Positions 5,626-56,111 of a DNA stretch of 64,000 bases are shown piece by piece. This DNA comes from Shigella virus Moo19, in the sequence record MZ358387; one strand, 5' to 3'. The stretch's first letter is position 1. The number at the start of each line of letters is the position of its first letter. The notes beneath the pieces were generated by a model, which searched no databases, was not told where the DNA came from, and saw only the letters and a program-made list of their open reading frames with translations. The translations under genes were made by a program, and so were the position numbers.

Positions 5626-5627
5626 CT

Positions 5628-27467: not shown

Positions 27468-30047
27468 ATGCGTCATATCGTATCCCATGATTCCGGCAAG
27501 TATCCTATTGCCATTCTGTCTACCCGACTCAACAGGGAAGACATGATAAAAACCTATCTGCACCCCGACCAGTTATCTATGGAAGATTTTATCTTCCTGG
27601 AACTGCATTCTGCACCGGGTAAAAAGAAAACTCCTGCCAAGGAAATGAAGGAGTTTATTCAGTCAGAGTTGCAGCAAGTGCTCGACACTGCTGAGACTAA
27701 GTACGTTATCTGTACTGACTCTGACTACTTTAAGGTGCTGACTAAGGAAACTAAAGCTGAAGCCAACTTAGGCTACATCGTTGATTCCATCTGGGGTGAC
27801 CAGAAAGTTATCTATGTGCCTAACTACAGACAGGTCTTTTATGACCCACCTGTGGTTAAGGCCAAGATTAAACAAGGGATGGATGCTTTACTCAACCATA
27901 TCCGGGGGCAGTATGCTGAACCAGGACAAGGAATAATTGAGTTTGAAGCCTATCCCCGTACTAACCAGGAAATCAAAGCATGGCTTGACCAGTTGCTTGA
28001 GATGAATAAGCCATTGGCAATAGACATCGAAGCATTCGGTTTAAAGCACTATAACGCAGGCATAGGAACGATTACGTTCTGCTGGAGTAAGACACAGGGC
28101 ATTGCCTTCAACGTCGATTACGAGCCGATTGTAGGGGCTACACAGCCACCTTACGGACGAGTTAACCGTAACGACATTGTTCGTAACCTGTTACGTGACT
28201 TCTTCATGAAGTACATGCAACGGCAGATATATCACAATATCAGCTATGACGTGTATGTCCTCATCTATCAGTTGTTCATGGACAACCTGATTGATACAGG
28301 AGGACTGCTTGACGGCATGGACGTAATGCTTCGTAACTGGGACTGTACAAAACTGATTACCTATCTGGCTACAAATAGCTGTGCTGGTAATCACCTTAGC
28401 TTGAAGGAACAAGCTCAAGAATACGCTGGTAACTATGCTCAGGATGACATTAAAGACATCTGTCAGATTCCTAATGACCAACTGCTGCGTTACAACCTCA
28501 TAGATGGTCTATGTACCTGGTACACCTATGAGAAGCACTGGGATACTCTGGTAGCTGATGACCAACTGGATGTTTACAACAACATCTTTAAGCCAGCATG
28601 TGAGGATATTATTCAGATGCAGCTTACGGGTATGCCCATGAACATGGACACCGTAAATGAAGTTGCAACTGAGATGGAACAAGACCGGAACCGGGCAATG
28701 AAGACTATCCAGAGTAGCACTCTGGTTAAGAACTTCACCCTGCATCTTCGTCAGAAGTGGGTAGACGAAAAGAATCAGAAGCTGAAAAAGAAACGAGTAA
28801 CACTGGCTGATTGTAACCTTGAGTTTAATCCAAACTCTGGGCCACAACTGCAAGATTTGTTATTCGAATTCATAGGCTTACCTGTATTAGGTCTGACTAA
28901 GAGCAAGCAACCTGCTACCGATGGTGACACCATTAAAGCTCTACGAAGTCACACCAAAAATGACGACGTTAAGGAACTGCTCAATGCACTTATCGACTAT
29001 AAGCTTGTGGATAAGATTATCACTAGCTTCATCCCAGCCTTCCGTAATGCTCAGCCAGGGCCAGATGGATGGCACTACTTATTCGGCAACCTCAACCTTG
29101 GGGGAACTGTATCTGGACGGCTGTCGGCAAGCGAGCCTAACCTTCAGACAATACCATCTGGTTCGAAATATGCTAAGGCAATAAAACGTTGCTTCCAAGC
29201 ACCACCGGGATGGATATTCTGTGGATTAGACTTTGCCTCACTGGAGGACAGAATCTCTGCACTGACTACGAAAGACCCTCAGAAACTTAAGGTATATACC
29301 GATGGTTACGATGGTCATAGTCTTCGTGCATATGCTTACTTCGGTGAGCAAATGCCCGACATCGTAGACACAGTTGAGTCAATTAATTCCATTCAAGAGA
29401 AGTACAAACACTTGCGTGGTGACTCTAAAGCCCCAACATTCTTGCTTACTTATGGTGGCACGTATATGGGCTTGATGAAAAACTGTGGATTCTCGGAAGA
29501 GAAAGCTAAGACAACAGAGAAACGTTATCACGACCTCTATACGGTCAGTGATGCGTGGGTACAGGCTAAGCTGGACGAAGCTGCCAAAACTGGTTATGTT
29601 ACTGCCGCATTCGGTTTGAGAGTGCGTACTCCTTTACTGGCTCAGGTATTACGTGGGACATGTAAGACTCCGTATGAGGCAGAAGCTGAAGGCCGAACTG
29701 CTGGTAATGCTTTAGGGCAAAGCTGGTGTCTGCTTAATAACCGTGCTGGTTCAGAGTTCATGCGTAAAGTCAGAACCAGTGAGTTCAGGCTGGATATCCG
29801 ACCGAGTATTCATATTCATGATGCTCAGTACTTCATGATTCGTGACAACATGGACACGTTGCAGTTTACCAACAAGCACCTCGTTGATGCAGTTAACTGG
29901 CAGAATCACCCGGATATTGCCCATCCAGATGTTGGTCTGGGTGGAGAGCTATCTTTATTCTACCCAACGTGGGCTAACGAGATTGTCATTCCAAATCACG
30001 CTACCCCGGAAGAAGTTCATTCAACAATTCAAAAGGCATTTTCATGA
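27468..30047 (+). CDS. Family A DNA polymerase with 3'-5' exonuclease domain
   Basis: Exo I LAIDIEAFG; pol motif A GLDFASLEDR, motif B KAPTFLLTYGG, motif C IHIHDAQY. Confidence 0.85.
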   Translation: MRHIVSHDSGKYPIAILSTRLNREDMIKTYLHPDQLSMEDFIFLELHSAPGKKKTPAKEMKEFIQSELQQVLDTAETKYVICTDSDYFKVLTKETKAEANLGYIVDSIWGDQKVIYVPNYRQVFYDPPVVKAKIKQGMDALLNHIRGQYAEPGQGIIEFEAYPRTNQEIKAWLDQLLEMNKPLAIDIEAFGLKHYNAGIGTITFCWSKTQGIAFNVDYEPIVGATQPPYGRVNRNDIVRNLLRDFFMKYMQRQIYHNISYDVYVLIYQLFMDNLIDTGGLLDGMDVMLRNWDCTKLITYLATNSCAGNHLSLKEQAQEYAGNYAQDDIKDICQIPNDQLLRYNLIDGLCTWYTYEKHWDTLVADDQLDVYNNIFKPACEDIIQMQLTGMPMNMDTVNEVATEMEQDRNRAMKTIQSSTLVKNFTLHLRQKWVDEKNQKLKKKRVTLADCNLEFNPNSGPQLQDLLFEFIGLPVLGLTKSKQPATDGDTIKALRSHTKNDDVKELLNALIDYKLVDKIITSFIPAFRNAQPGPDGWHYLFGNLNLGGTVSGRLSASEPNLQTIPSGSKYAKAIKRCFQAPPGWIFCGLDFASLEDRISALTTKDPQKLKVYTDGYDGHSLRAYAYFGEQMPDIVDTVESINSIQEKYKHLRGDSKAPTFLLTYGGTYMGLMKNCGFSEEKAKTTEKRYHDLYTVSDAWVQAKLDEAAKTGYVTAAFGLRVRTPLLAQVLRGTCKTPYEAEAEGRTAGNALGQSWCLLNNRAGSEFMRKVRTSEFRLDIRPSIHIHDAQYFMIRDNMDTLQFTNKHLVDAVNWQNHPDIAHPDVGLGGELSLFYPTWANEIVIPNHATPEEVHSTIQKAFS

Positions 30048-30355
30048 CCAAAGAAACCCAAAAAGAAGATAAAGCCATGCACCACTGGATGGTATCTGCA
30101 CAGGTTGTATTTACCAACAAAGATGCCAGTGATGGTGGCGTACTTCCAATGAATGCCATTCTGCTGACCGAGCAACAGTATGTTAACGCTGCTTCTCTGG
30201 CACAGGCTCAACGTACTCTGACAGCAAATACGATGGAACGTATGCAAGCCCCAGATATGGGTATTGTTGATATCGTATTTATGGGTATCAGCTATCTGGG
30301 TCACATGACTCAGGCAGGCTTCAACCCGGATAACTCAGTTAAGCCGGGGGTCTGA
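30044..30355 (+). CDS. Hypothetical protein (103 aa)
   Basis: ORF track. Confidence 0.4.
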   Translation: MTKETQKEDKAMHHWMVSAQVVFTNKDASDGGVLPMNAILLTEQQYVNAASLAQAQRTLTANTMERMQAPDMGIVDIVFMGISYLGHMTQAGFNPDNSVKPGV

Positions 30356-30356
30356 T

Positions 30357-30635
30357 ATGACTAAGCTCTCCGGTGGTCTTAATAACTGGTATGTAGTACC
30401 AGTAAAAAATCCCCAACGGAAAGAGCAAGAGCCATATCAGGCAGAGTGTGAGGATATTATCCAGGCACTGGGCATGACCTTCGATGAAGGTTGTGCCTTT
30501 AAAGCCTTATGGCGAAATGCTGCTGCTCGTATGGGTAATGGTAAACCAGGCAACACTGCTGTTTACGATGCTCAAAAAATGGTGCATTACACCACTCGTG
30601 TATTGAATAAGGAGTTAGCTGATGAAGATAACTAA
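30357..30635 (+). CDS. Hypothetical protein (92 aa)
   Basis: ORF track. Confidence 0.4.
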   Translation: MTKLSGGLNNWYVVPVKNPQRKEQEPYQAECEDIIQALGMTFDEGCAFKALWRNAAARMGNGKPGNTAVYDAQKMVHYTTRVLNKELADEDN

Positions 30636-31602
30636 TGAACATGACGTAAGTCTGGCCTTAGCTGTCTGGCTCCTGTACGACGAATATGACTATGTGGATA
30701 ATCCGAAGTATCTTTCGGCTACCACACTGCTTAAACCACTTAAGCAGATTGTCATGAAGCACCGTGTTGACTTCAGCAATGAGTCAATCGATGTGATGGA
30801 CTTTGCTCAGGCTTCGATGGGTACTGGTTTACACGACTCTATCGAGAAAGCATGGAAGTTAGGCCATAAGTCTGCACTCAAGAAACTGGGATACCCAGAC
30901 CGTGTTGTTAATGCTGTAGTCATTAACCCTACCAAAGAAGATTTCGATAAGAACCCGAATTTAATTCCGGTGTATATCGAACGTCGTGGAACCAAGAACC
31001 TCAGAGGCTGGCTCATTGGGGGTAAGTTCGACATTGTAACAGAAGGTCTGTTGCAGGACTTTAAGTCCACCTCAACCTATTCCTGGGTTGCAGGTTCCCG
31101 TGACGACGAACATAAAATGCAAGGTAGCATCTACCGTTGGATTCACGATGATGTAATCACAGAGGATGTGATTCGCATTAACTACATTTTTACCGACTTC
31201 GTTAAGTACATGGCAGCAAATAATCCGAAGTATCCTGCCCGTCGCATTATGCACAAAGATATTCCGTTGCTGTCTTACGAACGTACTGAAGCCTGGCTAA
31301 ATGAAAAGCTACAGCTTATTGAGAAGTACTGGGATGCTCCTGAAAGTGAAATCCCTGAGTGTACTGACGAAGAGCTGTGGCGAACTGAGCCACAGTTTAA
31401 GTATTTTTCTGACCCAACAAAGGTAGATGTACCCGGAGCGAGAAGTACTAAGAACTTTGATGACATGATTTCTGCTCGCAAATTCATGGCTGAAAAAGGT
31501 GGTAAGGGTGCAATCAAAGTAGTCGAGGGACAAGTTAAACGCTGCGAGTATTGTGCCGTAGCACCTATTTGTAAACAAAGAGAGAGATATTTCCCATCAT
31601 GA
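30622..31602 (+). CDS. Putative PD-(D/E)XK exonuclease with Cas4-like C-terminal Cys cluster
   Basis: GGKFDIV...DFKST core-like motif; C-terminal CEYCAVAPIC (C-x2-C-x5-C). Confidence 0.5.
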   Translation: MKITNEHDVSLALAVWLLYDEYDYVDNPKYLSATTLLKPLKQIVMKHRVDFSNESIDVMDFAQASMGTGLHDSIEKAWKLGHKSALKKLGYPDRVVNAVVINPTKEDFDKNPNLIPVYIERRGTKNLRGWLIGGKFDIVTEGLLQDFKSTSTYSWVAGSRDDEHKMQGSIYRWIHDDVITEDVIRINYIFTDFVKYMAANNPKYPARRIMHKDIPLLSYERTEAWLNEKLQLIEKYWDAPESEIPECTDEELWRTEPQFKYFSDPTKVDVPGARSTKNFDDMISARKFMAEKGGKGAIKVVEGQVKRCEYCAVAPICKQRERYFPS

Positions 31603-32114
31603 GTAAGCTGACTCAGCAACGGCTGAAAGAGTTGCTGCATTATGACCCATTAACTGGGATATTCACTCGCCGCATTTCTTTAAGCAACCGCACACCAGTA
31701 GGTAGCGTTGCTGGGTCACTTAATAAAAGTGACGGCTACGTCTACATAACTGTTGATTCAATACGTGAATCTGCACATAGATTGGCTTGGTTGTATGAAA
31801 AAGGTGTTTGGCCTAAAGGTCTTATAGACCATAGGGATACAATACGTCATCACAACTGGATAGCAAATTTAAGGGAAGCAGATAAAAGTACTAATGGTGC
31901 TAACCGTGGACTGAATATAAACAACACCACTGGTTTTATGGGTGTTGCAAAATTCAGAAAGGGATACCGAGCAGCAATAAAGGTAAACCATAAATCATAT
32001 TTTTTAGGCGTGTTTCCAAAGGCAAACGATGCAGCAAAAGTCTATGACCAAGCAGCTATTGAACACTTTGGTGAATTTGCTGTCACTAACATGAGTTTAG
32101 GATTAATTACATGA
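31599..32114 (+). CDS. HNH homing endonuclease with AP2-like DNA-binding domain
   Basis: HNH_3-like region (SAHRLAWL...IDHRD...NLR) and AP2-like region (GFMGVAKFRKGYRAAIKV...YDQAA). Confidence 0.7.
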   Translation: MSKLTQQRLKELLHYDPLTGIFTRRISLSNRTPVGSVAGSLNKSDGYVYITVDSIRESAHRLAWLYEKGVWPKGLIDHRDTIRHHNWIANLREADKSTNGANRGLNINNTTGFMGVAKFRKGYRAAIKVNHKSYFLGVFPKANDAAKVYDQAAIEHFGEFAVTNMSLGLIT

Positions 32115-34267
32115 GTATCGACCTTACTGGTATAAGCCACCATCCTGCAATTGAAGAAATTGTGGATGTGTTGTGTAACAAGACACAAAATAACGACCGG
32201 GGGTTCTTCCGTGTCGAAGTAGCTTACTTCCTGGCTAAAATGGCATCCTGTATGGGTGCAACCATCGTCACTAAAGACCGTGGTGACCTGCCAGTAAACA
32301 TCTATGCTATGGCGTTAGCTACGTCTGGCTTCGGTAAAGGTCACTCGGTAAATATCATTGAAGATGGGTTCATGTCTGGATTCCGTAAACGTTTTATGGA
32401 AGACACCATGCCCGTCATCTCTAACGACCGTCTATGGCGTATTGCCAATGACCGTTCTGCAAGGAATGGTACTGACCAACAGGAAGAGTTTGATAAAGTT
32501 GAAGCTGAGTATAAACGTGCTGGTGCATATCCATTTACGTTTGACTCAGGTACTCCACCAGCAGTTAAGCAATTACGCCATAAACTGTTAATGGCTGGCT
32601 GTGGTTCTATCAACCTACAGATTGACGAAATTGGTTCCAACTTGTTAGCCAACGTCGATGTGCTGAATCTGTTCCTGGAGTTATATGACCAGGGTAAGGT
32701 TAAGCAGAAGCTGACCAAGAACACTGCCGAGAGCCAGCGAGGTGAGGAACTGGACGGTAAGACTCCAACTAATCTGCTGCTTTTTGGTACGCCAAGTAAA
32801 CTGCTGGATGGTGGTCAGACCGAAGACCAGTACTATGACTTCCTGGACACTGGTTACGCACGTCGTTGTATCTTTGCTATCGGTCAAGTTGACCGTAAAG
32901 CCTATAACACAATGACTCCTGAAGAAATCTACCATAACCTGACTAAGCAGGATAATACGGCATCGTTAAGTAAGTGGGCTAATAAGTTTCACGACTTAGC
33001 TGACCCAAATTTATTCGGCTTTAAGATGGTAGTAGAAGACGATGTAGGTATTGCCCTGATTGCTTATAAAATTGACTGTGAAAGACAAGCTGAAGCTATG
33101 GCTGACCACGAAGAAATTCGTAAAGCTGAAATCTCTCACCGTTACTTTAAAGCACTCAAACTGGCTGGTGCATTGGCCTTTGTTGACCAAAGTTCATTTA
33201 TTGAAATGGGTCACTTACAGCAAGCCATTCTGTTAGTAGAAGAGTCTGGTGCAGCATTCCAAACAATTCTGAATCGTGAGAAAGCTTACGTTAAGCTGGC
33301 TCGTTACATTGCCTCTGTAGGCAAGGAAGTAACTCACGCAGATTTGCTGGAGTCATTGCCATTCTATAAGAGTGGTAATGCAGCTCGTAATGAGATGATG
33401 ACCCTTGCTACTGCATGGGGCTACAAACAGCACATTATTATTAAGAAGACCTTCAACGAAGGAATTGAGTTCTTCCGTGGGGAAACTCTGAAAGAAACCA
33501 ATACTGATGAAATGGTAATCGCCTACAGTGATAACTTTGCTTATAACTACATTGGCGAAAAAGTACCATTCGACCAGCTTCATGTGCTGACCCAGCATGA
33601 GGGTATGCACTGGATTAACCACCACGTTAAGAACGGTCATCGTTCTGAAGAAAACGTTATCGCTGGCTTTAACATGATTGTTATTGACTGTGATGGTGGC
33701 ATTCCACTGAATACGTGCCATGAACTGATGAAAGATTATAAGTTCATGACGTATACCACCAAACGTCACACAGATGACGAAAACCGTTTCCGTCTCATTC
33801 TGCCAATGAACTACCAACTCGAACTGGACACAGAAGAGTACAAGGAGTTCATGAATAACGTTATGGCCTGGCTCCCGTTTGATACGGATGAATCAGCCAA
33901 CCAACGTGCTAAGAAATGGATGTCTTGTGAGACAGGAACGTATCACTACAACCTTGAAGCTCCACTTCTGGATGTACGTGATTTCATTCCTCGAACCAGT
34001 AAGAACGAGCAATTCCGTCAGCATATGCAACAGGTTCAATCATTGGATAACCTGGAACGTTGGTTTGCTGGGCGTATTGCCTCTGGCAACCGTAACAACC
34101 AGATGATTAAGTATGCCCTGGCTCTCGTAGACAGTGGCTGGGACTTTAATCAGGTTCATAAGTCAGTGATGGAATTTAACAAGAAATTGTCTAATCCATT
34201 GCCAGACGATGAACTTAACTCAACTGTTATGGTCACTGTAGCGAAGAAATTCGCAGGCAGTAAGTAA
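32111..34267 (+). CDS. Putative DNA primase / replication protein
   Basis: Size and position in replication module; possible primase-like acidic motif IVIDCDGG; weak. Confidence 0.4.
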   Translation: MSIDLTGISHHPAIEEIVDVLCNKTQNNDRGFFRVEVAYFLAKMASCMGATIVTKDRGDLPVNIYAMALATSGFGKGHSVNIIEDGFMSGFRKRFMEDTMPVISNDRLWRIANDRSARNGTDQQEEFDKVEAEYKRAGAYPFTFDSGTPPAVKQLRHKLLMAGCGSINLQIDEIGSNLLANVDVLNLFLELYDQGKVKQKLTKNTAESQRGEELDGKTPTNLLLFGTPSKLLDGGQTEDQYYDFLDTGYARRCIFAIGQVDRKAYNTMTPEEIYHNLTKQDNTASLSKWANKFHDLADPNLFGFKMVVEDDVGIALIAYKIDCERQAEAMADHEEIRKAEISHRYFKALKLAGALAFVDQSSFIEMGHLQQAILLVEESGAAFQTILNREKAYVKLARYIASVGKEVTHADLLESLPFYKSGNAARNEMMTLATAWGYKQHIIIKKTFNEGIEFFRGETLKETNTDEMVIAYSDNFAYNYIGEKVPFDQLHVLTQHEGMHWINHHVKNGHRSEENVIAGFNMIVIDCDGGIPLNTCHELMKDYKFMTYTTKRHTDDENRFRLILPMNYQLELDTEEYKEFMNNVMAWLPFDTDESANQRAKKWMSCETGTYHYNLEAPLLDVRDFIPRTSKNEQFRQHMQQVQSLDNLERWFAGRIASGNRNNQMIKYALALVDSGWDFNQVHKSVMEFNKKLSNPLPDDELNSTVMVTVAKKFAGSK

Positions 34268-34273
34268 GAAACC

Positions 34274-34303
34274 GGGAGTCTTTCTTTGGTTTGAAGGACT
34301 CCC
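34274..34303. promoter_or_regulatory. Inverted repeat gggagtc ... gactccc with 16-nt loop, intergenic
   Basis: Read directly; no T tract. Confidence 0.3.
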
Positions 34304-34322
34304 AATTAACCGAGGAAAAGTA

Positions 34323-35078
34323 ATGTCCGAAGAATTAGTCGCCAATGACATGAACACACAATTGATTCTGATTGCTGGGTTCTCTGCGAGTGGTAAATCA
34401 GCGTCACTCCGTAACTTACGGAACCAAGAACGCTGGTTGTATCTGAATACCGAAGCAGGTAAACGTCTGCCATTCCGTAACAAGTTTCAGTCCTACAACA
34501 TCGAAGACCCGTATCAAATCTGGGAAGCGTTCGATGCTGCATCACCTGGTGGTGATATGGCTAATGACATTGATGGCATCATCATTGACTCAGCCACATT
34601 TATGATGGATATGCTGGAATCCCAGTATGTACTTCCATCAGCAAACACCCAGAAAGCCTGGGGGGACTTTGCTCAGTTCTTCAAAATTCTGCTTCAGCAG
34701 AAGGTTGTTAAGTTTGGTAAGCCAGTGATTATCACGGCTCATGCCAAAGACGAACTGGACGAAGCAGCAGGTATCATGAAGACGTTCATTCCAGTGAAAG
34801 GTTCGCTGAAGAATAACGGCCTGGAAGCATACTTCTCAACTGTCGTTTACGCAGAGCGTGTAGACATTAAGGAACTAGAGAAGTATGGCAATAAGATGCT
34901 GGAGATTACGGAAGAAGAACGTGACTTAGGTTATAAACACGTATTCCAGACTCGCCCGACTAAGAAATCTGTCGGTAAGCGTCTTCGTTCACCAATGGGT
35001 ATGTTCGAGAAGTCAGAGACTTATATCGATAACGATGCCCAGAAACTGCTCGACCACCTGGCTGAATACTACGCTTAA
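34323..35078 (+). CDS. RecA-fold P-loop ATPase (Sak4/AAA_24-like)
   Basis: Walker A GFSASGKS; acidic DSAT motif; position next to SSB. Confidence 0.45.
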   Translation: MSEELVANDMNTQLILIAGFSASGKSASLRNLRNQERWLYLNTEAGKRLPFRNKFQSYNIEDPYQIWEAFDAASPGGDMANDIDGIIIDSATFMMDMLESQYVLPSANTQKAWGDFAQFFKILLQQKVVKFGKPVIITAHAKDELDEAAGIMKTFIPVKGSLKNNGLEAYFSTVVYAERVDIKELEKYGNKMLEITEEERDLGYKHVFQTRPTKKSVGKRLRSPMGMFEKSETYIDNDAQKLLDHLAEYYA

Positions 35079-35117
35079 GCGTTTGCCTGGTTGTTAATAA
35101 CTTATTAGGAAAATCAC

Positions 35118-35909
35118 ATGTCAAATCTGTTTGGTAATCTGAAAGACAAAACCAAAAACGCTGAAGCTACTAAAGACTCCCTGGGTGGTGGCTTCGGTGC
35201 TAAAGAAACTGACATCTACACTGGTGTTGTGAAAGTTGCCTACGTAGGCAAAGCTGACTCCGGTGCTGACTGGATGCAGCTTATCATCGAAGAACTGAAG
35301 AACTCTGACGGTGCACCTGCTGGTGAATACCGTGAGCAAGTCTACTTCACTTCCGGTAAAGAAAAAGGCAACAAGCCTACTTACGAGAAGAACGGTAAGG
35401 AATACTTCCTGCCTGGTTACACCACCATCAACGATATGATGTTGATGACTACTGGCAAAGAACTGTTCGAAGCTGACTTCGAAGAGAAGATTGTCAAAGT
35501 GTATGACTTCGACCAGCAAGCCGAAGTTAACAAGTCTGTCATGGTTCCAGTCGAAATGATTGGTCAGCCAATCACCATTGCGATTGAAAAAGTTCTGGAG
35601 AACAAACAGTCCAAAGGTGACGACGGTAAGTACTACGACAACGGTGAAACCCGTGAAGTAAACAACATCCAGAAAGTGTTCCACCCGGAACTGTTGGTTA
35701 CTGTTGTTGAAGCTCGTGAAGCCGAAAAAGCAGAGAAAGACCTGACGCCTGAACTGGCTCAGTTCCATGCTGCATGGCTGGATAAGAACAAAGGTAAAAC
35801 CCGTGATAAAACCAGCAAGACTGGTGGCAAAGCGGGTACTCCACCTAAACCAGGTTCTACTGGTGGTTCTGCTCCGGCTGGTGGTAAGTCTCTGTTCGGT
35901 AAGAAATAA
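35118..35909 (+). CDS. Putative single-stranded DNA-binding protein (N4 SSB-like)
   Basis: 263 aa; Gly/Lys-rich flexible C-terminus; synteny with replication and recombination genes. Confidence 0.5.
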   Translation: MSNLFGNLKDKTKNAEATKDSLGGGFGAKETDIYTGVVKVAYVGKADSGADWMQLIIEELKNSDGAPAGEYREQVYFTSGKEKGNKPTYEKNGKEYFLPGYTTINDMMLMTTGKELFEADFEEKIVKVYDFDQQAEVNKSVMVPVEMIGQPITIAIEKVLENKQSKGDDGKYYDNGETREVNNIQKVFHPELLVTVVEAREAEKAEKDLTPELAQFHAAWLDKNKGKTRDKTSKTGGKAGTPPKPGSTGGSAPAGGKSLFGKK

Positions 35910-36469
35910 TGCAAATCCCAATTCTCGGAGCAGACATCTCTCTTCGGAATTGGGGATTAGCAAGGGGTATGCTGGACATTGAGTCCGGCGTGTTTGAGAA
36001 GGTAGAACTCAAACTGGTTCAGACTGAAGTTGACCACAACAAGCAAGTCCGAACCAACTCCAAAGACATTCAAGCTGCCCATGATATCTTCATTGGCGTT
36101 AAGGACTGGTTCATTGAAGACAAGCCCAAAGCTGTATTCATTGAAGTGCCTGTAGGCTCTCAGTCTGCTAATGGCATGAAGTCATATGGCTTGTGTGTCG
36201 GACTCGTTGGGGCATTCCGTGCATTGGGATGCCCCGTCTTCGAGGTATCCCCTACCGAAAACAAAATTGCACTGGCTGGTAATAAAACAGCCTCCAAAGA
36301 CGTAATGATACGTACTGCCTACGAAATCTATCCTGAAGCTAACTGGCTCAAGGATAGTAAGGGTAAGTTGCTCAATAAGAATGAGCACTTAGCTGATGCA
36401 ATCGGTGCAATCCATGCTGGTGTAAATCTGCCAGCGTTTCAAAACTTACTGAAAATGTTAAAGGCTTAA
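35909..36469 (+). CDS. RuvC-like Holliday junction resolvase
   Basis: N-terminal ILGADIS...GLA and C-terminal EHLADAIGAIHAG resemble RuvC catalytic motifs. Confidence 0.55.
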   Translation: MQIPILGADISLRNWGLARGMLDIESGVFEKVELKLVQTEVDHNKQVRTNSKDIQAAHDIFIGVKDWFIEDKPKAVFIEVPVGSQSANGMKSYGLCVGLVGAFRALGCPVFEVSPTENKIALAGNKTASKDVMIRTAYEIYPEANWLKDSKGKLLNKNEHLADAIGAIHAGVNLPAFQNLLKMLKA

Positions 36470-36470
36470 C

Positions 36471-36968
36471 ATGCAAATCACACTGAACCAAGAAGAAGTA
36501 CAGGCTGCGTTGCAGGCTCACGTTGACACACTTGTTAACGTAGCAGGTGATGCTCATATCACCGTCAACGAAGATGGTACTGCCCTGGTTATTATCGGGG
36601 AGGAACATCATGAAGATACTCCACCCGTGGTAGATAAGCCAAAACGTACCCGTGGTCCGAACAAACGCAACCCTGCTGAAGCTAAGCATGTTCCTGTAGA
36701 AGCAAAAAAGGAACTGGAACAGCCTGCCGAAACCCAGACCTCGACTGGTGGTCAGAACGAGAGTTCTACGCAGGAAGCTAAAGAATCCGAGCAGGAAAAG
36801 GATACTGAATCAACCGAGCAACTGAAAGAAGAAGCTACCGAGCAAGCTGAAGAAGCAGCATCGAAAGGGGCTTCTCAGGAAGCTGAAGTAAAACAGGAAG
36901 TTCAGGAAGAGAAGGCTGCTGAAGCTCCGGCTGCAAAACCTTCCCTGTTTGCTAACCTGAAACGTTAA
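36471..36968 (+). CDS. Acidic low-complexity protein (E/Q/T/S-rich)
   Basis: ORF track; composition. Confidence 0.45.
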   Translation: MQITLNQEEVQAALQAHVDTLVNVAGDAHITVNEDGTALVIIGEEHHEDTPPVVDKPKRTRGPNKRNPAEAKHVPVEAKKELEQPAETQTSTGGQNESSTQEAKESEQEKDTESTEQLKEEATEQAEEAASKGASQEAEVKQEVQEEKAAEAPAAKPSLFANLKR

Positions 36969-36976
36969 TCTGGTAG

Positions 36977-37138
36977 GTGGCTCAGAAGCTGCTGCTATTT
37001 GTGGTAGTGTTCATAATTCTGATGCTATTGCTTATCAGGATTCTGGACGTGTCGGCTCCATACATAGCCTTTATCATCACTGTGATTATCCTCTGGAAAT
37101 GCAGTGAAAAGTCCGGTGGTGACAAGCCGCCAGATTAA
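36977..37138 (+). CDS. Possible small hydrophobic protein (53 aa, GTG start)
   Basis: Hand-translated; two hydrophobic segments; weak RBS; overlaps next ORF; speculative. Confidence 0.2.
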   Translation: MAQKLLLFVVVFIILMLLLIRILDVSAPYIAFIITVIILWKCSEKSGGDKPPD

Positions 37139-37445
37139 TAACAACCGAACCAGTGTGCAGGAATACTCTCCCCTGTGCATTGGTTCAACTCGGATAAGTA
37201 ATATGACTGTTCATCCTATGGAAGAGTACATTGATGCTCTTGTTACCTGTGAAATTGCCATGTTGATGGCCATCAAACACAAGGAGAATCCGAATGTTTC
37301 TGTAGCTTTGTGTGCTGCAAGGCAGTCACTTAAGTGCACTAACAGAATGAACAGGGATTTGTTTCGTGAAGTCAGTAAATCTGAATTACCTGCTGTAATG
37401 GTCTATAGTTTCAGGACTATGCTGGATGAAGCAATTAGTAAATAG
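37104..37445 (+). CDS. Hypothetical protein (start uncertain)
   Basis: ORF track. Confidence 0.3.
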   Translation: MKSPVVTSRQINNNRTSVQEYSPLCIGSTRISNMTVHPMEEYIDALVTCEIAMLMAIKHKENPNVSVALCAARQSLKCTNRMNRDLFREVSKSELPAVMVYSFRTMLDEAISK

Positions 37446-37484
37446 TTGCACAAGCAGATAAGTTTGTAGTATAAAGATTTCCAC

Positions 37485-37566
37485 GGGGGAGTAGTCAAGC
37501 GGTCGAAGACGGCAGACTGTAAATCTGTTATCCCACACGGTAGTTCGAATCTACCCTCCCCCACCA
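37485..37566 (+). tRNA. tRNA-Tyr (anticodon GTA), 10-nt variable region, CCA encoded
   Basis: Hand-folded cloverleaf: acceptor GGGGGAG/CTCCCCC, T-loop TTCGAAT, anticodon loop CTGTAAA. Confidence 0.65.
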
Positions 37567-37567
37567 C

Positions 37568-37642
37568 GGTAAGTTAGCTAATTGGTGAAGCGGCTGACTG
37601 TTAATCAGTGATAGAGTGGTTCGAGTCCACTACTTACCGCCA
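37568..37642 (+). tRNA. tRNA-Asn (anticodon GTT), CCA encoded
   Basis: Hand-folded: acceptor GGTAAGT/ACTTACC, T-loop TTCGAGT, anticodon loop CTGTTAA. Confidence 0.7.
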
Positions 37643-37647
37643 CATTA

Positions 37648-37724
37648 CGGAGTTTAGCTCAGTCTGGTAGAGCATCTGCTTTGGGAGCAGAGGGTCGTAG
37701 GTTCGAGTCCTGCAATTCCGACCA
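37648..37724 (+). tRNA. tRNA-Pro (anticodon TGG), CCA encoded
   Basis: Hand-folded: acceptor CGGAGTT/AATTCCG, D-arm GCTCAGTCTGGTAGAGC, anticodon TGG. Confidence 0.7.
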
Positions 37725-37730
37725 AACAAT

Positions 37731-37806
37731 TAGGGGTTAGTTCAGTTGGTAGAACATCGGACTTTGATTCCGAATGTCACAGGTTCGAATCCTGTACCCC
37801 TTGCCA
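37731..37806 (+). tRNA. tRNA-Gln (anticodon TTG), CCA encoded; position 1-72 is T-T (unpaired)
   Basis: Hand-folded: D-arm GTTCAGTTGGTAGAAC, anticodon loop CTTTGAT, T-loop TTCGAAT. Confidence 0.6.
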
Positions 37807-37808
37807 AA

Positions 37809-37884
37809 TGCTTCATAGCTTAGTAGGTAGAGCACACCCCTGATAAGGGTGAGGTCATTGGTTCAAATCCAATAACGGACGCCC
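37809..37884 (+). pseudogene. tRNA-Ile(GAT)-like element with non-complementary acceptor stem (possible pseudo-tRNA)
   Basis: D-arm, anticodon arm (CACCC-CTGATAA-GGGTG) and T-arm are canonical, but 5' TGCTTCA cannot pair with 3' AACGGAC. Confidence 0.4.
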
Positions 37885-38112
37885 AATTTGGCAGTAACAT
37901 AGTCCTGATTGTATAGCACTCTAAAGACAACACTGGTAAGACAGTCCAGTGGCTGCTAATATATTGTTATTCCCCTCGACGGGAATTTCGCTGGAGAATA
38001 GGAACTCCTTAAATCCTAGCCCTGATGAAGTAGTGGACTATCAATCCATCCTCGCTCTAGTGATGAGTACTACTGAATCTGCAAGCCTCCCAGCTATGGG
38101 TAAATAGTACTA

Positions 38113-38148
38113 AGCCCCTCAGAGCCGTCACTCTGGGGGGCTTTTTTA
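38113..38148 (+). terminator. Rho-independent terminator (11-bp stem gcccctcagag/ctctggggggc + T6)
   Basis: Read directly; ends tRNA-region transcript. Confidence 0.7.
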
Positions 38149-38176
38149 TTCGAACAATACAAACACTGAGGAACCT

Positions 38177-38599
38177 ATGGAACTCGAACAAAAGATTAAA
38201 GAAGCTGGTGCTGATAAAGCTCCACGTATTACCCCTGACCATATCCAGAGCAAAGTAATTGCTAAGCACTTCTTCACAGCATTAGATGGTGCATCCACTC
38301 AGATGCGTAGCGAAGATAAGTTCTCGAACCAGGAAGTACAGTCACTGTCTCTACTGACTTTCTGTGTACTGGTTCTGGAGAATGGCTTTACTGTTACTGG
38401 TGAGTCTGCCTGTGCATCCCCGGAAAATTTCAATGAGGAAATTGGACGTAAGATTGCCTATGACAATGCAATCGATAAAGTCTGGTTGCTGGAAGGTTAC
38501 CTGCTTAAGCAGAATCTCCATGAGCAAGCTCAGAGCCAGGAAATGCTGAAGGGTTTTCTGGAAAACAATGAATGTGAGGGTGGGGGCTGTAAAATATAA
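38177..38599 (+). CDS. Conserved phage protein (N4 gp49 / Phage_gp49_66-like)
   Basis: Motif NGFTVTGESACASPENFNEEIGRKIAYDNA recalled as characteristic of this family; immediately precedes vRNAP gene as in N4. Confidence 0.45.
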   Translation: MELEQKIKEAGADKAPRITPDHIQSKVIAKHFFTALDGASTQMRSEDKFSNQEVQSLSLLTFCVLVLENGFTVTGESACASPENFNEEIGRKIAYDNAIDKVWLLEGYLLKQNLHEQAQSQEMLKGFLENNECEGGGCKI

Positions 38600-38835
38600 T
38601 GTCGTTAACTGAAATCATCCGAAATTCTATTATCGAAACGGATACCCGTGGCAAAGCCTTTGACTTTATTCAACGCGAAGCAGGTGTACCCCGTATCGTA
38701 GCTAAGAGACTACTGTTCTCTTTCCTCTGGTTCCCTACTGAGGAAACACTCCAGAAGATTAAAGATAGTGGTGGTGATGATTTACCTGCCGATATCAAAA
38801 GCAACCTGGAAAGTGCAGTAGCAGCAAAGCTGTAA
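38599..38835 (+). CDS. Hypothetical protein (78 aa)
   Basis: ORF track. Confidence 0.4.
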   Translation: MSLTEIIRNSIIETDTRGKAFDFIQREAGVPRIVAKRLLFSFLWFPTEETLQKIKDSGGDDLPADIKSNLESAVAAKL

Positions 38836-38840
38836 AAATT

Positions 38841-38872
38841 AAAGCCCCTCTAATGAGGGGCTTTTTTATTTT
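38841..38872. terminator. Bidirectional terminator (aaagcccctc-taat-gaggggctt flanked by A-run and T-run) between convergent + and - transcription units
   Basis: Read directly; T/A tracts on both sides. Confidence 0.7.
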
Positions 38873-41800
38873 AGTTTACCAGATTCATCCAAGGGTTGAG
38901 GTTATGAGCACGTAAGCCCTGACCCAATCCGATAGAGTAATCCAGTCTACCATCAGCAGCAGCCGAGAACAGGTTATCCTGTAATGGCAGACCAACGTTA
39001 CCAAACATGGTAGGAGTTGGAGCCAGCATAGCCATAGCTGCATGAACAGGGTTATTACGAATCATGGACACTGCAACTTTAGTAGAACGAATCTTAAAGT
39101 TATAGAACCACATCAGACCCATGCTTTCCATGTAACCACGGAAACGACCCGGCAGACGGTCATAGTTAATGAACTCTTCGGTAACACGACCCAGAGCTTC
39201 TTCCTTACTCTTACCTTTACGCTTAGTCAGTTCATCATAGATGATTGCTTTAGCAATAAAGTCAGAGTACTCAACCGTCTTCTGGATACCCTGGAACAGA
39301 GCAGTATCCTTAGTGATAAGTGCATAACGACCAGCAGTTTGCAGCTTCTTAGGCAGCTTATCTGCTAAACGCTGCATGTACTCCTGTACCTTACCATCCG
39401 GGATTAACAGGTCATCACGAGAGATACCAGCATCAGCAATAGAAGAGAACTCACCAGCTTCCAGCAAAGGCCAGATACTCATACGCTTATAGCTATCATT
39501 GATGGACTGAATCTCAGCTTTCAGTTTACGAGCCTGGTTCGGATTAGTAGTTGCACGAAGTTCTGCTTCAGCATCAACCTGGCGAAGACGAGACTTCATA
39601 TACTGGTTAATCTCAGCAGTCTTCTGAGGGATACCTTTAGCAATATCCTTAACTGGAACACCACGGGCAACCATCTGATAGAGGTTAGCCAGGAAGTTCA
39701 CAGCAGGAACCACGAGAGACTTGACCACGATTAAGGTCTTAGCCTCACGTACAACCGTCTGAGTGATATTCTCACCCTGCATAAAGTATTTGTATGCACG
39801 GTTGCCAAATACGCCCAGCATTGCTTTCTTGAAGGTATCCAAAGTCTCAGGTGACCAACGAGAGTTACCAGTCCATACATCACCAACAGAAGCAGCACGA
39901 TAACCAAGTGCATCATTCAACATGTCACGACGTACCCACAGTTCACCATTACCAAACAGTGACTCAGCTTTCTGACGAGTTTCTGCATTCATCAGACGCA
40001 TAGCATCAGCAGTAACTGGGTCAAGTTTAGAACCAAGAAGGTTAATGTACTGGCTCTTATTGCTGGTAGAATCTGCCATGTCCTTCTCGTACATAGCGTG
40101 AAGATTTTCAATCAGAGCATCGTTAAACTTCTGGGCTTTAGCTTCTTCTACCTGACGACCTCGCCATACACCAATTGCTTTAGCAAGGTTATCCTCACCA
40201 GCAATGTGAGTCAGCATGTTAGGGTCAATAGAGTGCTCATAAGCAACCACACGACCATTGCCATCATAGATAGGCATCAGTGGTTCATTACCACGTTCAC
40301 CCTTCGCCAGAGCTTTGGTGATACGGTCAACGGAAGGCTTGTCAGTAATACGACCAGCAACCATTGTTCCCATTGTGAAGCCAGTACCAACATCCACACC
40401 ACCAGCAGTATTACGAACGTTCTGGAGAATACCCTGTGAGTATGGAGCACGAGCAGCAACCGGGCTGAAGTAGTAACCACGACTACGAGTACGTTCACCA
40501 GAGCTACCCTGATAACCAGCAATACGAGTGAATGACTTCTCACTCAGTTCGTTAAACTGGCTGTCTTCTGCAACAATCAGGTTAACACCCTGCTTAGTCT
40601 CAGAAGGAATGTAGCCTTTGTAGTGGTTCAAACGAGCACGGTCATCATTCTGTGCTTTACGTTTCTCTTCCACACGCTGGCCTACCAGATAGGAAGTGAC
40701 AAAGTCCATACCTTCGGTTTCAGTCTGAGCCAGGGAAGCTAATGCCTCACGGTCAGCCTGACTCATTGCTTCGATGGCATACAGAGTAATCAGCTTGTCT
40801 AAGGTGTCCACATCAACGGTAGATTTAACGCTGGTACGCTCACCTAACAGACGGGAGATTGCCTCAGCATTACGCAGCAGGTTGTTACCGACAGTACCAT
40901 TAATCATGTACTGAGCCAGTTGCTTAGACTTACGGTTAATCAAAGGCCAGTTACGTCCTGCCTGATTCTGGAGGTCAGCTTCCAGCTTATTAACCAGCTT
41001 ATCCATTTCTTTCTGTGAAGACAGCAGGTCACGAATTTCACCCAGACTCATGGTGTCACGCAGTACAGCAAGGTCAGTTTTACCCATACCAGTGTGCATA
41101 GCTTTCCACTCTGCATCAGTCAGCTTACGGCTGAACTTAGAAGCAATAGTGGTAGGCAGATGCTCACGGAATTGCTGACGGTCAGCCTGTACCTGAGAGC
41201 GAACAGCTTTAATCATGTCATAGACAGAAGCATTCGACTTAGTACGACCTACGATGTCATTAACCAGGTCATAGAAAGGTTGCCATGCTTTTCCCTGGTT
41301 CATTGCAGCCATAACACCCTGTGCAACTTTCTCACCGTTCTTCTCAGTAGCAATAGCAGCTACCAATTGAGCAGCATGAGCAGTTGCCTTAACCAGTGGG
41401 TTCTTAGCATTAGCAGCAACATCACGAGCAGTATCCAGTGTGGCATCAGCCAGACGTTCTACACCATCAACAATATATTGGTTAGCACGGTCAATCATAT
41501 TCCCAGTTGGGGTAGCAACAGAGTCATAGAAGGACTGAGCATTCAGGCTGGATTCCATAATAGTTTCTGCCAGAGCATCAATACCTTCCTGAACGTTAGT
41601 TGCTTTGGTATCACCAGCAACACGCTTGTTCAGGCTATCCATTGCAGCTACGCCAATGTTAGTCAGCATTGCATCAATAGTATTACCGGATGCTTTATCT
41701 GCTTTCATAACAGGCATGTCAGTCAGTACGTTACGTACCTCTTCGCTTACCATTGCCAGACCAACAAAGGTAGGCAGTAAGGAAGAACGACCCTGAGCAT

Positions 41801-44800
41801 CAAACTCAATATTGTTAGCACCCATCAACGTATCGAACTTCTGTTGAGCATAGTAACGGTCAGCAGGGTTAGTGCTGTTCGGGTCTGCCATGAAGTCTTC
41901 TACTTTCAGGTTCTTGGTAACGTGAGTGTAATACTCCTGAGCACGAGCCAGAGCAGCAGGATGAATTGCAGCCTCAGTTGCTAGTGCAGCAACAATGTTG
42001 GTGAACAGACGACGTTCTTGCATGTTCATAGTAAAACCATGCCCCTGAACATCACGAGTTACCTTAACTGCATTCACTACTGCGTCAGAGAATTTACCCT
42101 TACGCATATGTTGCTGTACCGGGTCATTACCCAGGTAGTTCGTAATGAGACGGTCAAAGGTTTGACCCAGTGAAGTAAGACGGTCATTGTTGCCATAAGC
42201 AGTGCTATGGAACAGGGTAGCCTCAGCAGTAACCGGAGCAACCGGAGGCTGTGAACGCATCACTACAGCAGAGTTAAACAGCAGACCGGAGAACATATCT
42301 TCACCGTAAGCAGGGGCTTTCTTACGACCAAAAATGAGGCGTTTAATTGCTTCATAAACATCTTTAACCATCCTGGTAAGAGCAGTGGTTTTCTTCTGCT
42401 TCTTAATCAGTTCATGGTTGGTTAAGCCCCATGCCATGTACTCATTCAGTGCAGCAGCTTTAGCCATTGCTGGGTCAATGAAACCGTTGGACAGATGACC
42501 ATTGATAGTATCCAGTGCATCAGCGTAAGCCTCACGCATAGCCGGAGTATCTTTGGATACATCCAGACTACGGAACTGTTCCATCAGATTCTCGATGTTC
42601 TGTACAGCTTCATTGGTCTGGCCTTGATAGTGGTCAAGTACAGTCTCAAAAGTAGAAGCATGAACCAGTTCATGAATCAAGGTTTCCATTGATGGGCTAA
42701 CCAGGTAGACAGTCTTATCTGCAAAGTTAGTCCAACCATAGATATTACCTGCATTTGCAGCTTCAATATCTTCTGGAGCAGGACGCTCTACGTTACGTTC
42801 CATTGCATACTGGTCAATCTGGTTCACGTTACCGTAAACAACCTTGTAGCCTTTAGCAGCCAGTGACTTCTGAATCTCATTCAGTACAGCAGCCTGTTCA
42901 ACAGGAAGGTTGGACTCTTTAGCCAGTTTGTTAATAGCAGTCTGAGACAGCACACGAACACCAGACTTCAGAGCACGGCCTACAGTATCAAACTTATTAG
43001 TATCGGCTACTGGAGTCTTCTCAGCTTTACGAGCCTCTTTACGAGCCTGCAATTCAGCATCGAATAGCTCATTCAGTTTTGCTACTTGCTGGTCAACAGT
43101 CAGACCATCCAGAGAGATATTACCGTTGTTCACATAAGGGGAACCAACAGCAGCCATCTGGTCAACAGTAGTCTGTACCTGGTTCATTACCTTGTGACGG
43201 ATATCGACACCCAGAGCAATGTTACGCAGGTTACGCTCAATAAGATTAACACCTGCTTTCTCAATCATATCAATCTTATACTGCCTGTCACCATCAACAC
43301 GACTGATATGAGAAAGTTGTTCAAAATCCAAAGCAGAACGGGCAATACTATCAATTGCTTCATCTGATAACTTATTGAAATCTACATTTTTTACAAACTT
43401 AGAGAAGGAGTCATACACATTCTTGATAGGGTTACCCTGCCATGAAGTGTATACAGCTTCGTTAGCCTTACGGCTTGCATCAGTGATGTCATTGATACCG
43501 ATGTTCATACCATCAAAGATTTTGAGAGTATTTTTCGGTGCACCTTTCATAATAGAAAGGGTCTGCATCATCATGCCGTCACCAGTACCAATCGTCATGA
43601 AAGGAATACCAGCAACACCAGCTTGTGACGGTGCATAGATGCTCATTGGCACACGCATACGGTCATCAAAGTTGGTAGCCAGAACCTGGTTAGCAACATC
43701 AGTATTCTCAGAACCAGCAATGTAGAAAGTCTGGGAACCAGTCTCAATCATTGGAGCTAAGTCAGACAGTGAAGCCTGAATATCGTTAAGCTCTTTCTGA
43801 GTTAAGAAGTCACCCTTCTTCCAGTTAGGGTCTTTTTCTTTTTCTGCCAGCTTCTCCTGGACACGTTGCTGGAACATGTCTTGCAGAACCAGAGACTGAA
43901 TCTGGGTAGCTTTCTGAAGCTGTTCAGTGGAGTGCATCAGCCCTTCACCAACAGTATTCTGAATACCCTGTCTCATTGGTTCAACGAAAAAGTGCAGCAT
44001 GTTCTCTTGCAGAGACTTCAGTTGCTCACCTTTGACAGTGAACTTCTGAGGGTCAATCTTGCCAGACATAGCAGTACCAGTGTCTTCAAGAGACAGTTTA
44101 CCTTTACGCATAACTGGAACAGTACCAGTCAATGCTTTCATGTCTTCAATGAAACGACCGAGCATAGCCTCAGCATCGGCCTCAGATGCTGCCTGCTTGC
44201 CGAACATTGCCATAGCCGGGGAAATGTCCGGGTTCTGTGCACGGGCTTGCAGAACGTCGCTGAAGCGTTCGTAGATGGCATCAGTAATTGCACTCACCAT
44301 CTTGCCTGCAATACCACGAGCACCGGAACCATAAATGGTAATGGTCAGTGGGTTCTTGGCAATGCCACGTTTCAGTTCGAGGTTGCCTTCTTCATTGATG
44401 TTATAGTCAGGAATGAACAAGTCCATCAGAGAGGACAGATGATTCATCTGAGTATTAACAGCCGGGTTATTGGCATAGGTATTTCGCAGGTTAGTCAGTG
44501 CAGCTTTCAGACCGTTAGTGGATGCTTCGTACAGGTCAACGCTATCGTCAATAGAACGATGTTCGTTCATCGTCTTACCAGCACGACCAAAGAATAGACC
44601 ACCCTTAGCAGTATTCTGTACCCATTCTTTGGTGAACTTACCACCAGTCATCAGCATCATTGCGTTAATCGGACCGTTGGTTACACCATCAGCCTCAACG
44701 TACAGTGGAGTGTTGAACTTAGACTTGTCTTCAGCATTCAGGTAACGGGCATACTCCATCAGAGCCATGAGAGCTACGAAGGATTTATCACCACCCAATG

Positions 44801-49310: not shown

Positions 49311-49372
49311 AGCTTGTTTCCTGTTCAAACTTATATCTATAAGAGAACTCACTGTACATTAAGTGAGGGTAA

Positions 49373-49398
49373 GAAAAAAGCCCCGAAGGGCTTTTATA
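49373..49398 (-). terminator. Terminator between upstream virion gene and vRNAP gene (hairpin aagccc-cgaa-gggctt; U-run on - strand)
   Basis: Read directly. Confidence 0.55.
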
Positions 49399-49401
49399 GT
49401 A

Positions 49402-51366: not shown

Positions 51367-51378
51367 GATGGTTTCCTA

Positions 51379-51834
51379 TTAGCGAGAAAGTTTATTCTTC
51401 TCAATGTACTCGTCAGCAGTAGATTGGTCACGGTTTTCTGCAACAGCACGACTACGTGCACGGTCTTCTAACGCAGTGTTATAAGACTTAATCGAGTTAT
51501 TAAGGTTCGTGTTAGTAATGTCCTTAGTAAAGGACAACTGGTCTTTGGCTAACTTGTTAGCCTGGAAACCACCATAGATATTAGCCAATGAACCAAGAGC
51601 ACCAAGTCCCAATTGGAAGGTTGGAATATTCAAGCCTAAGCCCTGAGATGCCCCACCAAACAGAGAGGTATTACCAGCAGAGGAAGTACCTGGGGAAGTG
51701 TAATCTCCCAAAGTCATGCCCGGCTGATAATTCATTGCTGGAGTATTAAAGTTTTGGTTCTGGTTGTTACCAGATAACCAGGACATCCCACCAGCATTTT
51801 GAGAGGGATTCCCTGTAAGGAAGTTCAAATCCAT
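51379..51834 (-). CDS. Virion protein (N4 gp52 position), Gly/Asn-rich
   Basis: ORF track; aggag RBS. Confidence 0.45.
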   Translation of the reverse strand: MDLNFLTGNPSQNAGGMSWLSGNNQNQNFNTPAMNYQPGMTLGDYTSPGTSSAGNTSLFGGASQGLGLNIPTFQLGLGALGSLANIYGGFQANKLAKDQLSFTKDITNTNLNNSIKSYNTALEDRARSRAVAENRDQSTADEYIEKNKLSR

Positions 51835-51847
51835 AAGGATTCTCCTG

Positions 51848-54490: not shown

Positions 54491-54495
54491 GTTAC

Positions 54496-55335: not shown

Positions 55336-55351
55336 GATGTATTTCCTCATG

Positions 55352-55391
55352 GTTCAAAAAGAAACGGCTCACGGAATTAACCAGTGAGCCG
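55352..55391 (-). terminator. Putative terminator hairpin (cggctcac ... gtgagccg; U-run on - strand)
   Basis: 8-bp inverted repeat read directly, long loop. Confidence 0.35.
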
Positions 55392-55412
55392 TGTTATCGG
55401 TCAGCTTACAAC

Positions 55413-56051: not shown

Positions 56052-56067
56052 GTTAATAATTCCTGTG

Positions 56068-56098: not shown

Positions 56099-56111
56099 GT
56101 TAGGTTAGCTA

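Follow-up and report, generated by a model that had tools for sequence, protein, structure and literature searches.

An N4-type gene trio for a Sak4-like ATPase, an N4SSB orthologue and a RuvC-like resolvase in Shigella virus Moo19

The single-stranded DNA (ssDNA)-binding protein (SSB) of phage N4, known as gp45 or N4SSB, is essential for N4 DNA replication (PMC4496689) and, according to the title of Choi et al. 1995 as cited in that paper, is needed both for replication and for recombination. Its C-terminus is essential for the activation of late transcription and binds the β′ subunit of RNA polymerase, and ssDNA binding is dispensable for this activation (PMC4496689). In the account given in PMC2784036, which cites Miller et al. 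1997, residues S260, K264 and K265 make up part or all of the activating region and Y75 is essential for ssDNA binding; the same paper notes that roseophage SSBs lack the two terminal lysines. The combination of cooperative ssDNA binding with activation of Escherichia coli σ70 RNA polymerase through β′ is known for N4SSB only, and a model in which N4SSB links replication and recombination to late transcription has been published for N4 (PMC4496689). Here we describe the equivalent genes in 64,000 nucleotides of Shigella virus Moo19 (record MZ358387; this whole stretch is referred to as the window), where an ATPase gene, an SSB gene and a resolvase gene lie side by side.

The second system that bears on this locus is the Sak4 and SSB pair of phage HK620 (HkaL and HkaK; Hutinet et al. 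2018, PMC5928155). Sak4 is classed as a core-only RecA, and the HK620 protein is an ATP-dependent ssDNA binder and annealase that is stimulated by the SSB encoded alongside it, through the acidic NDYPPF tip formed by the last six residues of that SSB (PMC5928155). Up to 80% of sak4 genes adjoin an ssb gene, and sak4 has been reported in N4-like phages (PMC5928155). The HK620 SSB is regarded in the same study as a distant homologue of the N4 SSB, encoded by one of a class of ssb genes that adjoin sak4, and is equated with DUF669.

The original prediction, made from the letters of the window alone, placed a Sak4-like ATPase, a 263-aa SSB-like protein and a RuvC-like resolvase contiguously at 34323–36469, and three open reading frames (ORFs) on the same strand lie exactly there:

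34323–35078, plus strand: predicted Sak4-type P-loop ATPase, orthologue of N4 gp44, 251 aa
35118–35909, plus strand: orthologue of N4SSB (N4 gp45), predicted ssDNA-binding protein and presumed late-transcription activator, 263 aa
35909–36469, plus strand: predicted RuvC-type Holliday junction resolvase, orthologue of N4 gp46, 186 aa

We consider it highly probable that these are the orthologues of N4 gp44, gp45 and gp46 in a G7C/N4-like schitovirus, that they form the distal part of a middle-gene replication-recombination block, and that they act through the mechanism set out below. In N4 (NC_008720, 29520–31675) the three genes have the same order and strand, and the flanks are also the same, with exonuclease and primase genes upstream and the gp47 and virion RNA polymerase (vRNAP) genes downstream. 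The SSB stop codon overlaps the start of the gp46-like gene by 1 nt (TAATG), exactly as in N4, and the gp46-like gene is, on this arrangement of codons, translationally coupled to the SSB gene. The ATPase and SSB genes are separated by a spacer of 39 nt that carries an AGGA ribosome-binding site.

N4 was used in the original prediction as an analogy; the window itself is that of an N4-like podophage of the family Schitoviridae, near the G7C group, as judged from its gene content and DNA identity. It encodes a vRNAP of 3493 aa (38871–49352, minus strand), RNAPII subunits (7489–8307 and 8601–9854), rIIA and rIIB, a Dda-like helicase and a DNA polymerase, and its plus-strand block is a gene-by-gene match to N4 gp42–gp47. 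The DNA of positions 34000–36970 is 84% identical to Escherichia phage Jgk1, the best GenBank DNA match for this region, and ∼80% identical to the G7C-like (Gamaleyavirus) E. coli phages, so that the phage is closer in DNA to this group (80–84%) than to N4 and is therefore probably a new species near it, with an enterobacterial host. Versions of the three proteins that are nearly identical (97–98%) exist in public assemblies, and RefSeq records of related phages already give the three genes the same names.

The 263-aa protein is 61% identical to N4SSB from end to end (263/265 aa, E 3e-109), occupies the same place between the gp44 and gp46 genes, and covers the whole of the PHROG single-strand DNA binding protein profile phrog_743 (2.9e-83). 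A search of 1.84 billion proteins yields 1583 representatives of its family at E ≤ 1e-3, of which the 150 best listed are 231–280 aa long; 111 family sequences were the input for the alignment and the structural model. Pfam gives no match for the SSB, and a search of the Protein Data Bank (PDB) with the SSB profile gives chance-level matches only. The 111 family members together match 39 Pfam families at E ≤ 1; the Pfam SSB family is absent from the 25 of these that were listed, which are noise only. Four parts can be distinguished in the protein:

35118–35141, plus strand: N-terminal tail motif M-S-N-L-F-G-N-L, with F5 present in 93 and L8 in 99 of the 111 members
35205–35807, plus strand: folded core, residues 30–230, predicted as a divergent OB fold with a long β-hairpin and two C-terminal helices; holds Y76
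35808–35885, plus strand: linker, residues 231–256, rich in Gly, Pro and Ala and predicted to be disordered (pLDDT <50 for residues 236–258), varying in length and sequence in the alignment
35886–35906, plus strand: C-terminal tip K-S-L-F-G-K-K, equivalent of the N4SSB activating region S260, K264 and K265

The AlphaFold2 model of the SSB has a mean pLDDT of 84.5, with values mostly above 90 for residues 30–230. Strands β1–β3, a helix (residues 99–112) and strands β4–β5 follow one another in the order of an OB fold, and are succeeded by a β-hairpin (residues 151–188) and two helices; the five strands form, in the model, a β-barrel with the helix between the third and the fourth. When the model is compared with known structures using Foldseek, its neighbours are OB-fold ssDNA binders only, PrgE being the best match (E 3.6e-4), followed by bacterial SSBs and PriB. 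The core is thus predicted with confidence to be a strongly diverged OB fold, in a family (N4SSB) that has no solved relative recognisable by sequence. The original prediction stood or fell in part with the presence of an OB fold, and the predicted core has one. That the 263-aa protein is something other than an OB-fold ssDNA binder is hardly credible, given the order of its strands and helices and its 61% identity to a protein that has been purified and characterised as an SSB (PMC4496689).

The likeness to PrgE, an atypical OB-fold SSB of plasmid pCF10 (8s4s/8s4t), is at the level of the fold only, with ∼10% identity; PrgE has 144 aa and has no counterpart of the long hairpin and C-terminal helices, or of the linker and basic tip, of the window SSB. 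The general plan resembles that of the canonical E. coli-type SSB, which likewise has an OB core, a disordered Gly/Pro-rich linker and a short Phe-containing tip, but the window SSB differs from the bacterial proteins in having no Pfam SSB match and in its tip, which is basic (KSLFGKK) rather than acidic (DDDIPF). Compared with N4SSB it is 2 aa shorter and has a different linker. Residue Y76 aligns with N4 Y75 and lies in a predicted strand (residues 71–76), in a column occupied by Tyr in 94 and by Trp in 15 of the 111 sequences. As the orthologue of N4SSB, which has been purified and characterised (PMC4496689), the window protein would be expected to bind ssDNA. At its N-terminus the model shows a short helix (residues 6–11, pLDDT ∼70) joined to the core by a linker of low confidence. 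An L-F-G motif occurs at both ends of the protein (MSNLFGNL and KSLFGKK), and both copies are kept across the family. In PrgE, the N-terminal tail contacts the neighbouring protomer on ssDNA.

Alignment of the C-terminus with that of N4SSB, which the original prediction had proposed as a check, shows that the tip KSLFGKK is identical in the two proteins, S258, K262 and K263 being the equivalents of N4 S260, K264 and K265. The suggestion that this SSB may link replication and recombination to late gene expression is thus supported by the retention of the activating residues, and corresponds to the model already published for N4 (PMC4496689). Within the family the tip is not uniformly conserved. 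F260 is present in all 111 sequences, L259 in 109 and S258 in 105, whereas K262 and K263 are found in only ∼60% of them.

This pattern brings in another explanation, in which the tip serves first of all to dock proteins of the phage itself (Sak4, the DNA polymerase or both), like the tips of the HK620 SSB, of T7 gp2.5 and of bacterial SSBs, and the activation of host RNA polymerase is secondary and limited to those lineages that keep the terminal Lys-Lys. The near-universal S-L-F-G, set against the smaller share of sequences with the lysines required in N4, speaks for it, as do the roseophage SSBs that lack these lysines (PMC2784036), the recruitment of Sak4 by the last six residues of the homologous HK620 SSB (PMC5928155), and the unusually high conservation of gp44, which fits a conserved phage partner. 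Set against this, S260, K264 and K265 were mapped in N4 as the activating region, their target is a conserved part of β′ (PMC2784036, PMC4496689), and all three are kept here; moreover, no interaction between N4SSB and gp44 is reported in the literature on N4SSB and Sak4 that was examined. We regard a primarily docking role as a genuine possibility, though an unlikely one. Sak4 docking and β′ binding by the same tip may also coexist. A more elaborate scheme, which we offer as distinctly speculative, is that the SSB carries a two-peptide interaction code: the N-terminal LFGNL would serve contacts between protomers on ssDNA, as in PrgE, and the SLFG tip would be a shared docking peptide contested by the phage Sak4 or replisome and by host β′, the amount of free tip setting the time of the late switch.

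In a scan for σ70 promoters no convincing late promoter sites were found, and there was only a general depletion. The late region (44001–64000) has 14 σ70 consensus sites against 30.2 ± 5.4 expected from dinucleotide-preserving shuffles, and the middle region (30000–39500) has 6 against 15.7 ± 4.5 expected from shuffles of the same kind. The depletion in the late region is compatible with weak, activator-dependent late promoters. Terminator-like hairpins occur at about twice the expected frequency in both regions.

The gp44-like ATPase is 76% identical to N4 gp44. It matches the PHROG 'Sak4-like ssDNA annealing protein' family phrog_124 (1.8e-50) and phrog_2872 (1.1e-17), and it matches Pfam AAA_24 at 4e-11 (43.5 bits, cut-off 27), which bears out its initial description as Sak4-like. 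Both nucleotide-binding motifs are present:

34377–34400, plus strand: Walker A, G19-F-S-A-S-G-K-S26, with G19, S21, G24, K25 and S26 invariant in 42 family members
34575–34592, plus strand: Walker B, G85-I-I-I-D89-S, with G85 and D89 invariant in the same 42 members

Comparison with HK620 Sak4 by BLASTP gives matches of 2e-6 at the N-terminus and 2e-5 at the C-terminus, and hhalign aligns the N-terminal 38 columns with a probability of 96%; the two proteins cross-match phrog_124 and phrog_2872, and both match AAA_24. Searches of PDB sequences with the gp44 sequence and with the gp44 profile gave chance-level matches only. From the homology to HK620 Sak4 and the classification of the latter (PMC5928155), the gp44-like protein would be a core-only RecA-type Sak4, with which its length of 251 aa is consistent; by the same analogy it may bind and anneal ssDNA in an ATP-dependent manner. 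The gp44-like gene, too, adjoins an ssb gene. The gp44 family is strongly conserved, with at least 65% identity across its best 120 matches and a mean column identity of 69%, compared with 46% for the SSB.

The HK620 pair resembles the window pair in that sak4 lies directly upstream of ssb. The two SSBs belong to the same PHROG, phrog_743, which the HK620 protein matches at 1.4e-65, and this agrees with the published homology of the HK620 and N4 SSBs (PMC5928155). Direct comparison is weak: BLASTP finds nothing between the HK620 and window SSBs, and hhalign of the SSB family against the single HK620 sequence gives a probability of 2.9%, so the connection is made through phrog_743 and the published analysis. 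HK620 SSB likewise has no Pfam match at E ≤ 0.01. It differs from the window SSB in its size (195 aa compared with 263 aa) and its acidic tip, and no role in transcription is known for it; HK620 itself is temperate and has a RusA resolvase elsewhere in its genome. With these differences in mind, we take the HK620 pair, as a homologue of the window pair, to be a working model of an ATP-dependent annealase with its cognate SSB.

The third protein, put forward as a RuvC-like resolvase in the original prediction, is 70% identical to N4 gp46 and matches the PHROG family 'RuvC-like Holliday junction resolvase' (phrog_159) at 1.2e-43. Its model has a pLDDT of 92.7, and the 12 best Foldseek matches are all bacterial RuvC structures (E 7e-9 to 4e-6), the best of them with E 7e-9 to 1e-7 and TM scores of 0.6–0.8; chloroplast MOC1, the RuvC of lactococcal phage bIL67 and poxvirus resolvases come next. 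An RNase H-like fold shared with bacterial RuvC (Thermus thermophilus 4ep4/6s16, Pseudomonas aeruginosa 6lw3, E. coli 1hjr) extends over the whole gp46-like protein, which differs from these enzymes in being ∼20–30 residues longer, in sharing 18–24% identity with them, and in having no RuvA or RuvB partners encoded nearby. The fold search was needed because hhalign of the gp46 family against E. coli RuvC gives a probability of 2.5% with a short central match only. Across 72 sequences there is no variation at D9, E79, E159, H160 or D163. The first two of these residues align with D7 and E66 of E. coli RuvC, and H160-x-x-D163 fits by motif the RuvC pattern represented in E. coli by the pair D138/D141. 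This C-terminal H-x-x-D of the gp46-like protein lies on the last catalytic helix, like the His/Asp pair of Thermus RuvC. The model has a RuvC fold, in which the invariant residues would make up an acidic/His active site, and by analogy the protein would cleave four-way junctions as a dimer.

One could suppose instead that gp46 has the RNase H fold but does not resolve junctions, being for example a RuvC that has degenerated or a nuclease of the YqgF/RuvX type with different substrates. This would accord with the poor hhalign score, with a PDB sequence search in which the gp46 profile reaches RuvC at E 0.3 only, and with the failure of the window protein to reach any Pfam threshold, that of RuvC (PF02075) included. 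Such an explanation is nevertheless very unlikely. Foldseek places RuvC first (E 7e-9, TM 0.62–0.80) and RuvX far lower (E 5e-4, TM ∼0.4), the candidate catalytic residues are all invariant, and of the 72 close homologues, 26 are recognised by PF02075 at E ≤ 0.01, the best at 2.5e-8. A further argument comes from other subfamilies, in which a RusA-like resolvase takes the place of gp46. In the position that follows the SSB gene, N4, Pseudomonas phage LUZ7 and the window phage carry a RuvC-like gene; in Vibrio phage pVa5 and roseophage RD-1410W1-01 the gene there is RusA-like. Since the two are not homologous, their replacement of one another suggests that junction resolution is a conserved and selected function of this position.

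Taken together with what is known of N4 and HK620, these features lead us to favour the following mechanism, in which the steps are drawn from homology to those two systems, and the identity, order, motifs and predicted folds of the proteins from the present analysis. The SSB would coat ssDNA at replication forks and wherever ends have been resected by the gp42-like exonuclease; this enzyme, encoded upstream of the trio, probably supplies the module with its ssDNA ends. The Sak4-type ATPase would be loaded on the SSB-covered ssDNA and would anneal complementary strands in an ATP-dependent manner, supporting recombination-dependent replication and the formation of concatemers. The RuvC-type dimer would then cut the resulting branched DNA ahead of packaging. 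In parallel, the basic tip of the SSB (S258, K262 and K263) would contact β′ of the host σ70 RNA polymerase and so activate weak late promoters that serve the structural genes on the minus strand; with the SSB as late activator, late expression would wait for the build-up of a replication protein.

Several observations weigh against this interpretation. Every function given to the three proteins is carried over by homology. To our knowledge, there is no published biochemistry for N4 gp44, and the match of the gp44-like protein to HK620 Sak4 is restricted to the two ends of the protein. Because the window SSB has a basic tip and the HK620 SSB an acidic one, the same Sak4–SSB contact cannot be assumed. 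For gp46, MAFFT and hhalign place the C-terminal catalytic pair ambiguously on E. coli RuvC, and membership of RuvC at the level of sequence is indirect, as it is the homologues and not the window protein that match PF02075. The depletion of σ70 sites is seen in the middle region too and is therefore not specific to the late genes.

The trio might also be read as a replication module and not a recombination module, gp44 being a replisome or loader ATPase and gp46 debranching DNA for packaging only. In favour of this reading, the trio comes immediately downstream of genes for a helicase, a DNA polymerase, an exonuclease and a primase, N4 depends on N4SSB to replicate its DNA (PMC4496689), and AAA_24 comprises P-loop proteins of a generic kind; the literature examined, moreover, describes no recombination phenotype for gp44 or gp46. 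We think this unlikely, the more so as N4SSB is needed for recombination too (Choi et al. 1995, by its title as given in PMC4496689), and as the HK620 Sak4 and SSB promote annealing and recombineering (PMC5928155). The distinction is in any case partly semantic, because in phages late replication is usually inseparable from recombination.

The genes and elements on either side of the trio are as follows:

30622–31602, plus strand: N4 gp42-like exonuclease of the PD-(D/E)XK type; phrog_2139 exonuclease, 2.4e-145, with a weak match to Pfam PDDEXK_1
31599–32114, plus strand: HNH homing endonuclease; Pfam HNH_3, phrog_99 at 5.6e-61
32111–34267, plus strand: N4 gp43-like DNA primase; phrog_2135 DNA primase, 1225 bits, and Pfam PriCT_1
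34274–34303, plus strand: 11-bp stem-loop in the spacer between the primase and gp44-like genes; minimum free energy −19.8 kcal/mol, z −2.7
36471–36968, plus strand: gp47-like protein; phrog_7641 at 6e-33, with a weak match to N4 gp47

The exonuclease gene lies where gp42 lies in N4, and its position is likewise unchanged in LUZ7, in a roseophage and in a Vibrio phage. More generally, the order exonuclease–primase–Sak4–SSB–resolvase, followed by vRNAP on the opposite strand, is shared by three distant relatives, LUZ7, Vibrio phage pVa5 and roseophage RD-1410W1-01. LUZ7 has an additional 121-aa ORF (phrog_6026; 5239–5604 of the compared LUZ7 stretch) between its SSB and gp46-like genes, so the translational coupling of SSB and resolvase proposed for the window phage and N4 is not universal.

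Two features set the window apart from N4 in its gene content, an HNH homing endonuclease gene and four tRNA genes. The former sits between the exonuclease and primase genes and overlaps each of them by 4 nt; nothing is found at the equivalent spot in N4, and the G7C-like versions, which are 49–81% identical, adjoin the exonuclease gene. The tRNA genes (37485–37806, plus strand; Tyr-GTA, Asn-GTT, Pro-TGG and Gln-TTG) are located downstream, between the gp47-like gene and the small ORFs before vRNAP. An antisense ORF at 35121–35963 (280 aa) was rejected as a real gene and judged to be a shadow of the SSB gene because it has no family match.

The stem-loop between the primase and gp44-like genes has no U-tract and lies 20 nt 5′ of the gp44 start. 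N4 has an equivalent hairpin at the same place with a different stem sequence (5473–5502 of the compared N4 stretch), and the element may act in the stability, processing or attenuation of the middle transcript. At 38841–38864, where the middle genes on the plus strand and the vRNAP gene on the minus strand converge, lies a bidirectional terminator, a GC-rich hairpin formed by a perfect 10-bp palindrome with T-runs beside it on each strand. There is a second strong terminator at 38112–38143 on the plus strand.

The gp47-like protein, which is barely alignable with its N4 counterpart, consists of a conserved N-terminal domain of ∼45 aa followed by an acidic low-complexity tail. The gp47-like region is also found as part (aa 79–222) of the RusA-like resolvase ORF of roseophage RD-1410W1-01 (5511–6257 of the compared stretch). 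Because a conserved domain is fused in this way to a resolvase, gp47 could conceivably be a resolvase accessory, a weak lead. The N-terminal part of the roseophage RusA-like ORF begins at profile position 66 and its annotated start may be wrong, which hints at a mis-called start in the roseophage record as the alternative.

In its broad outline the trio is a known and already annotated module, and it matters little beyond correct annotation. It is an ordinary finding in that the arrangement is the textbook one of N4 and the genes are already named alike in the RefSeq records of relatives. Among its modest additions are a phage that appears to represent a new species close to the G7C group, the prediction of a divergent OB fold for the N4SSB family, and the alternation of RuvC and RusA by subfamily. 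The conservation of S-L-F-G across a family of about 1,600 representatives exceeds that of the lysines mapped in N4, and makes this peptide a target for asking how general late activation by SSB may be in the Schitoviridae.

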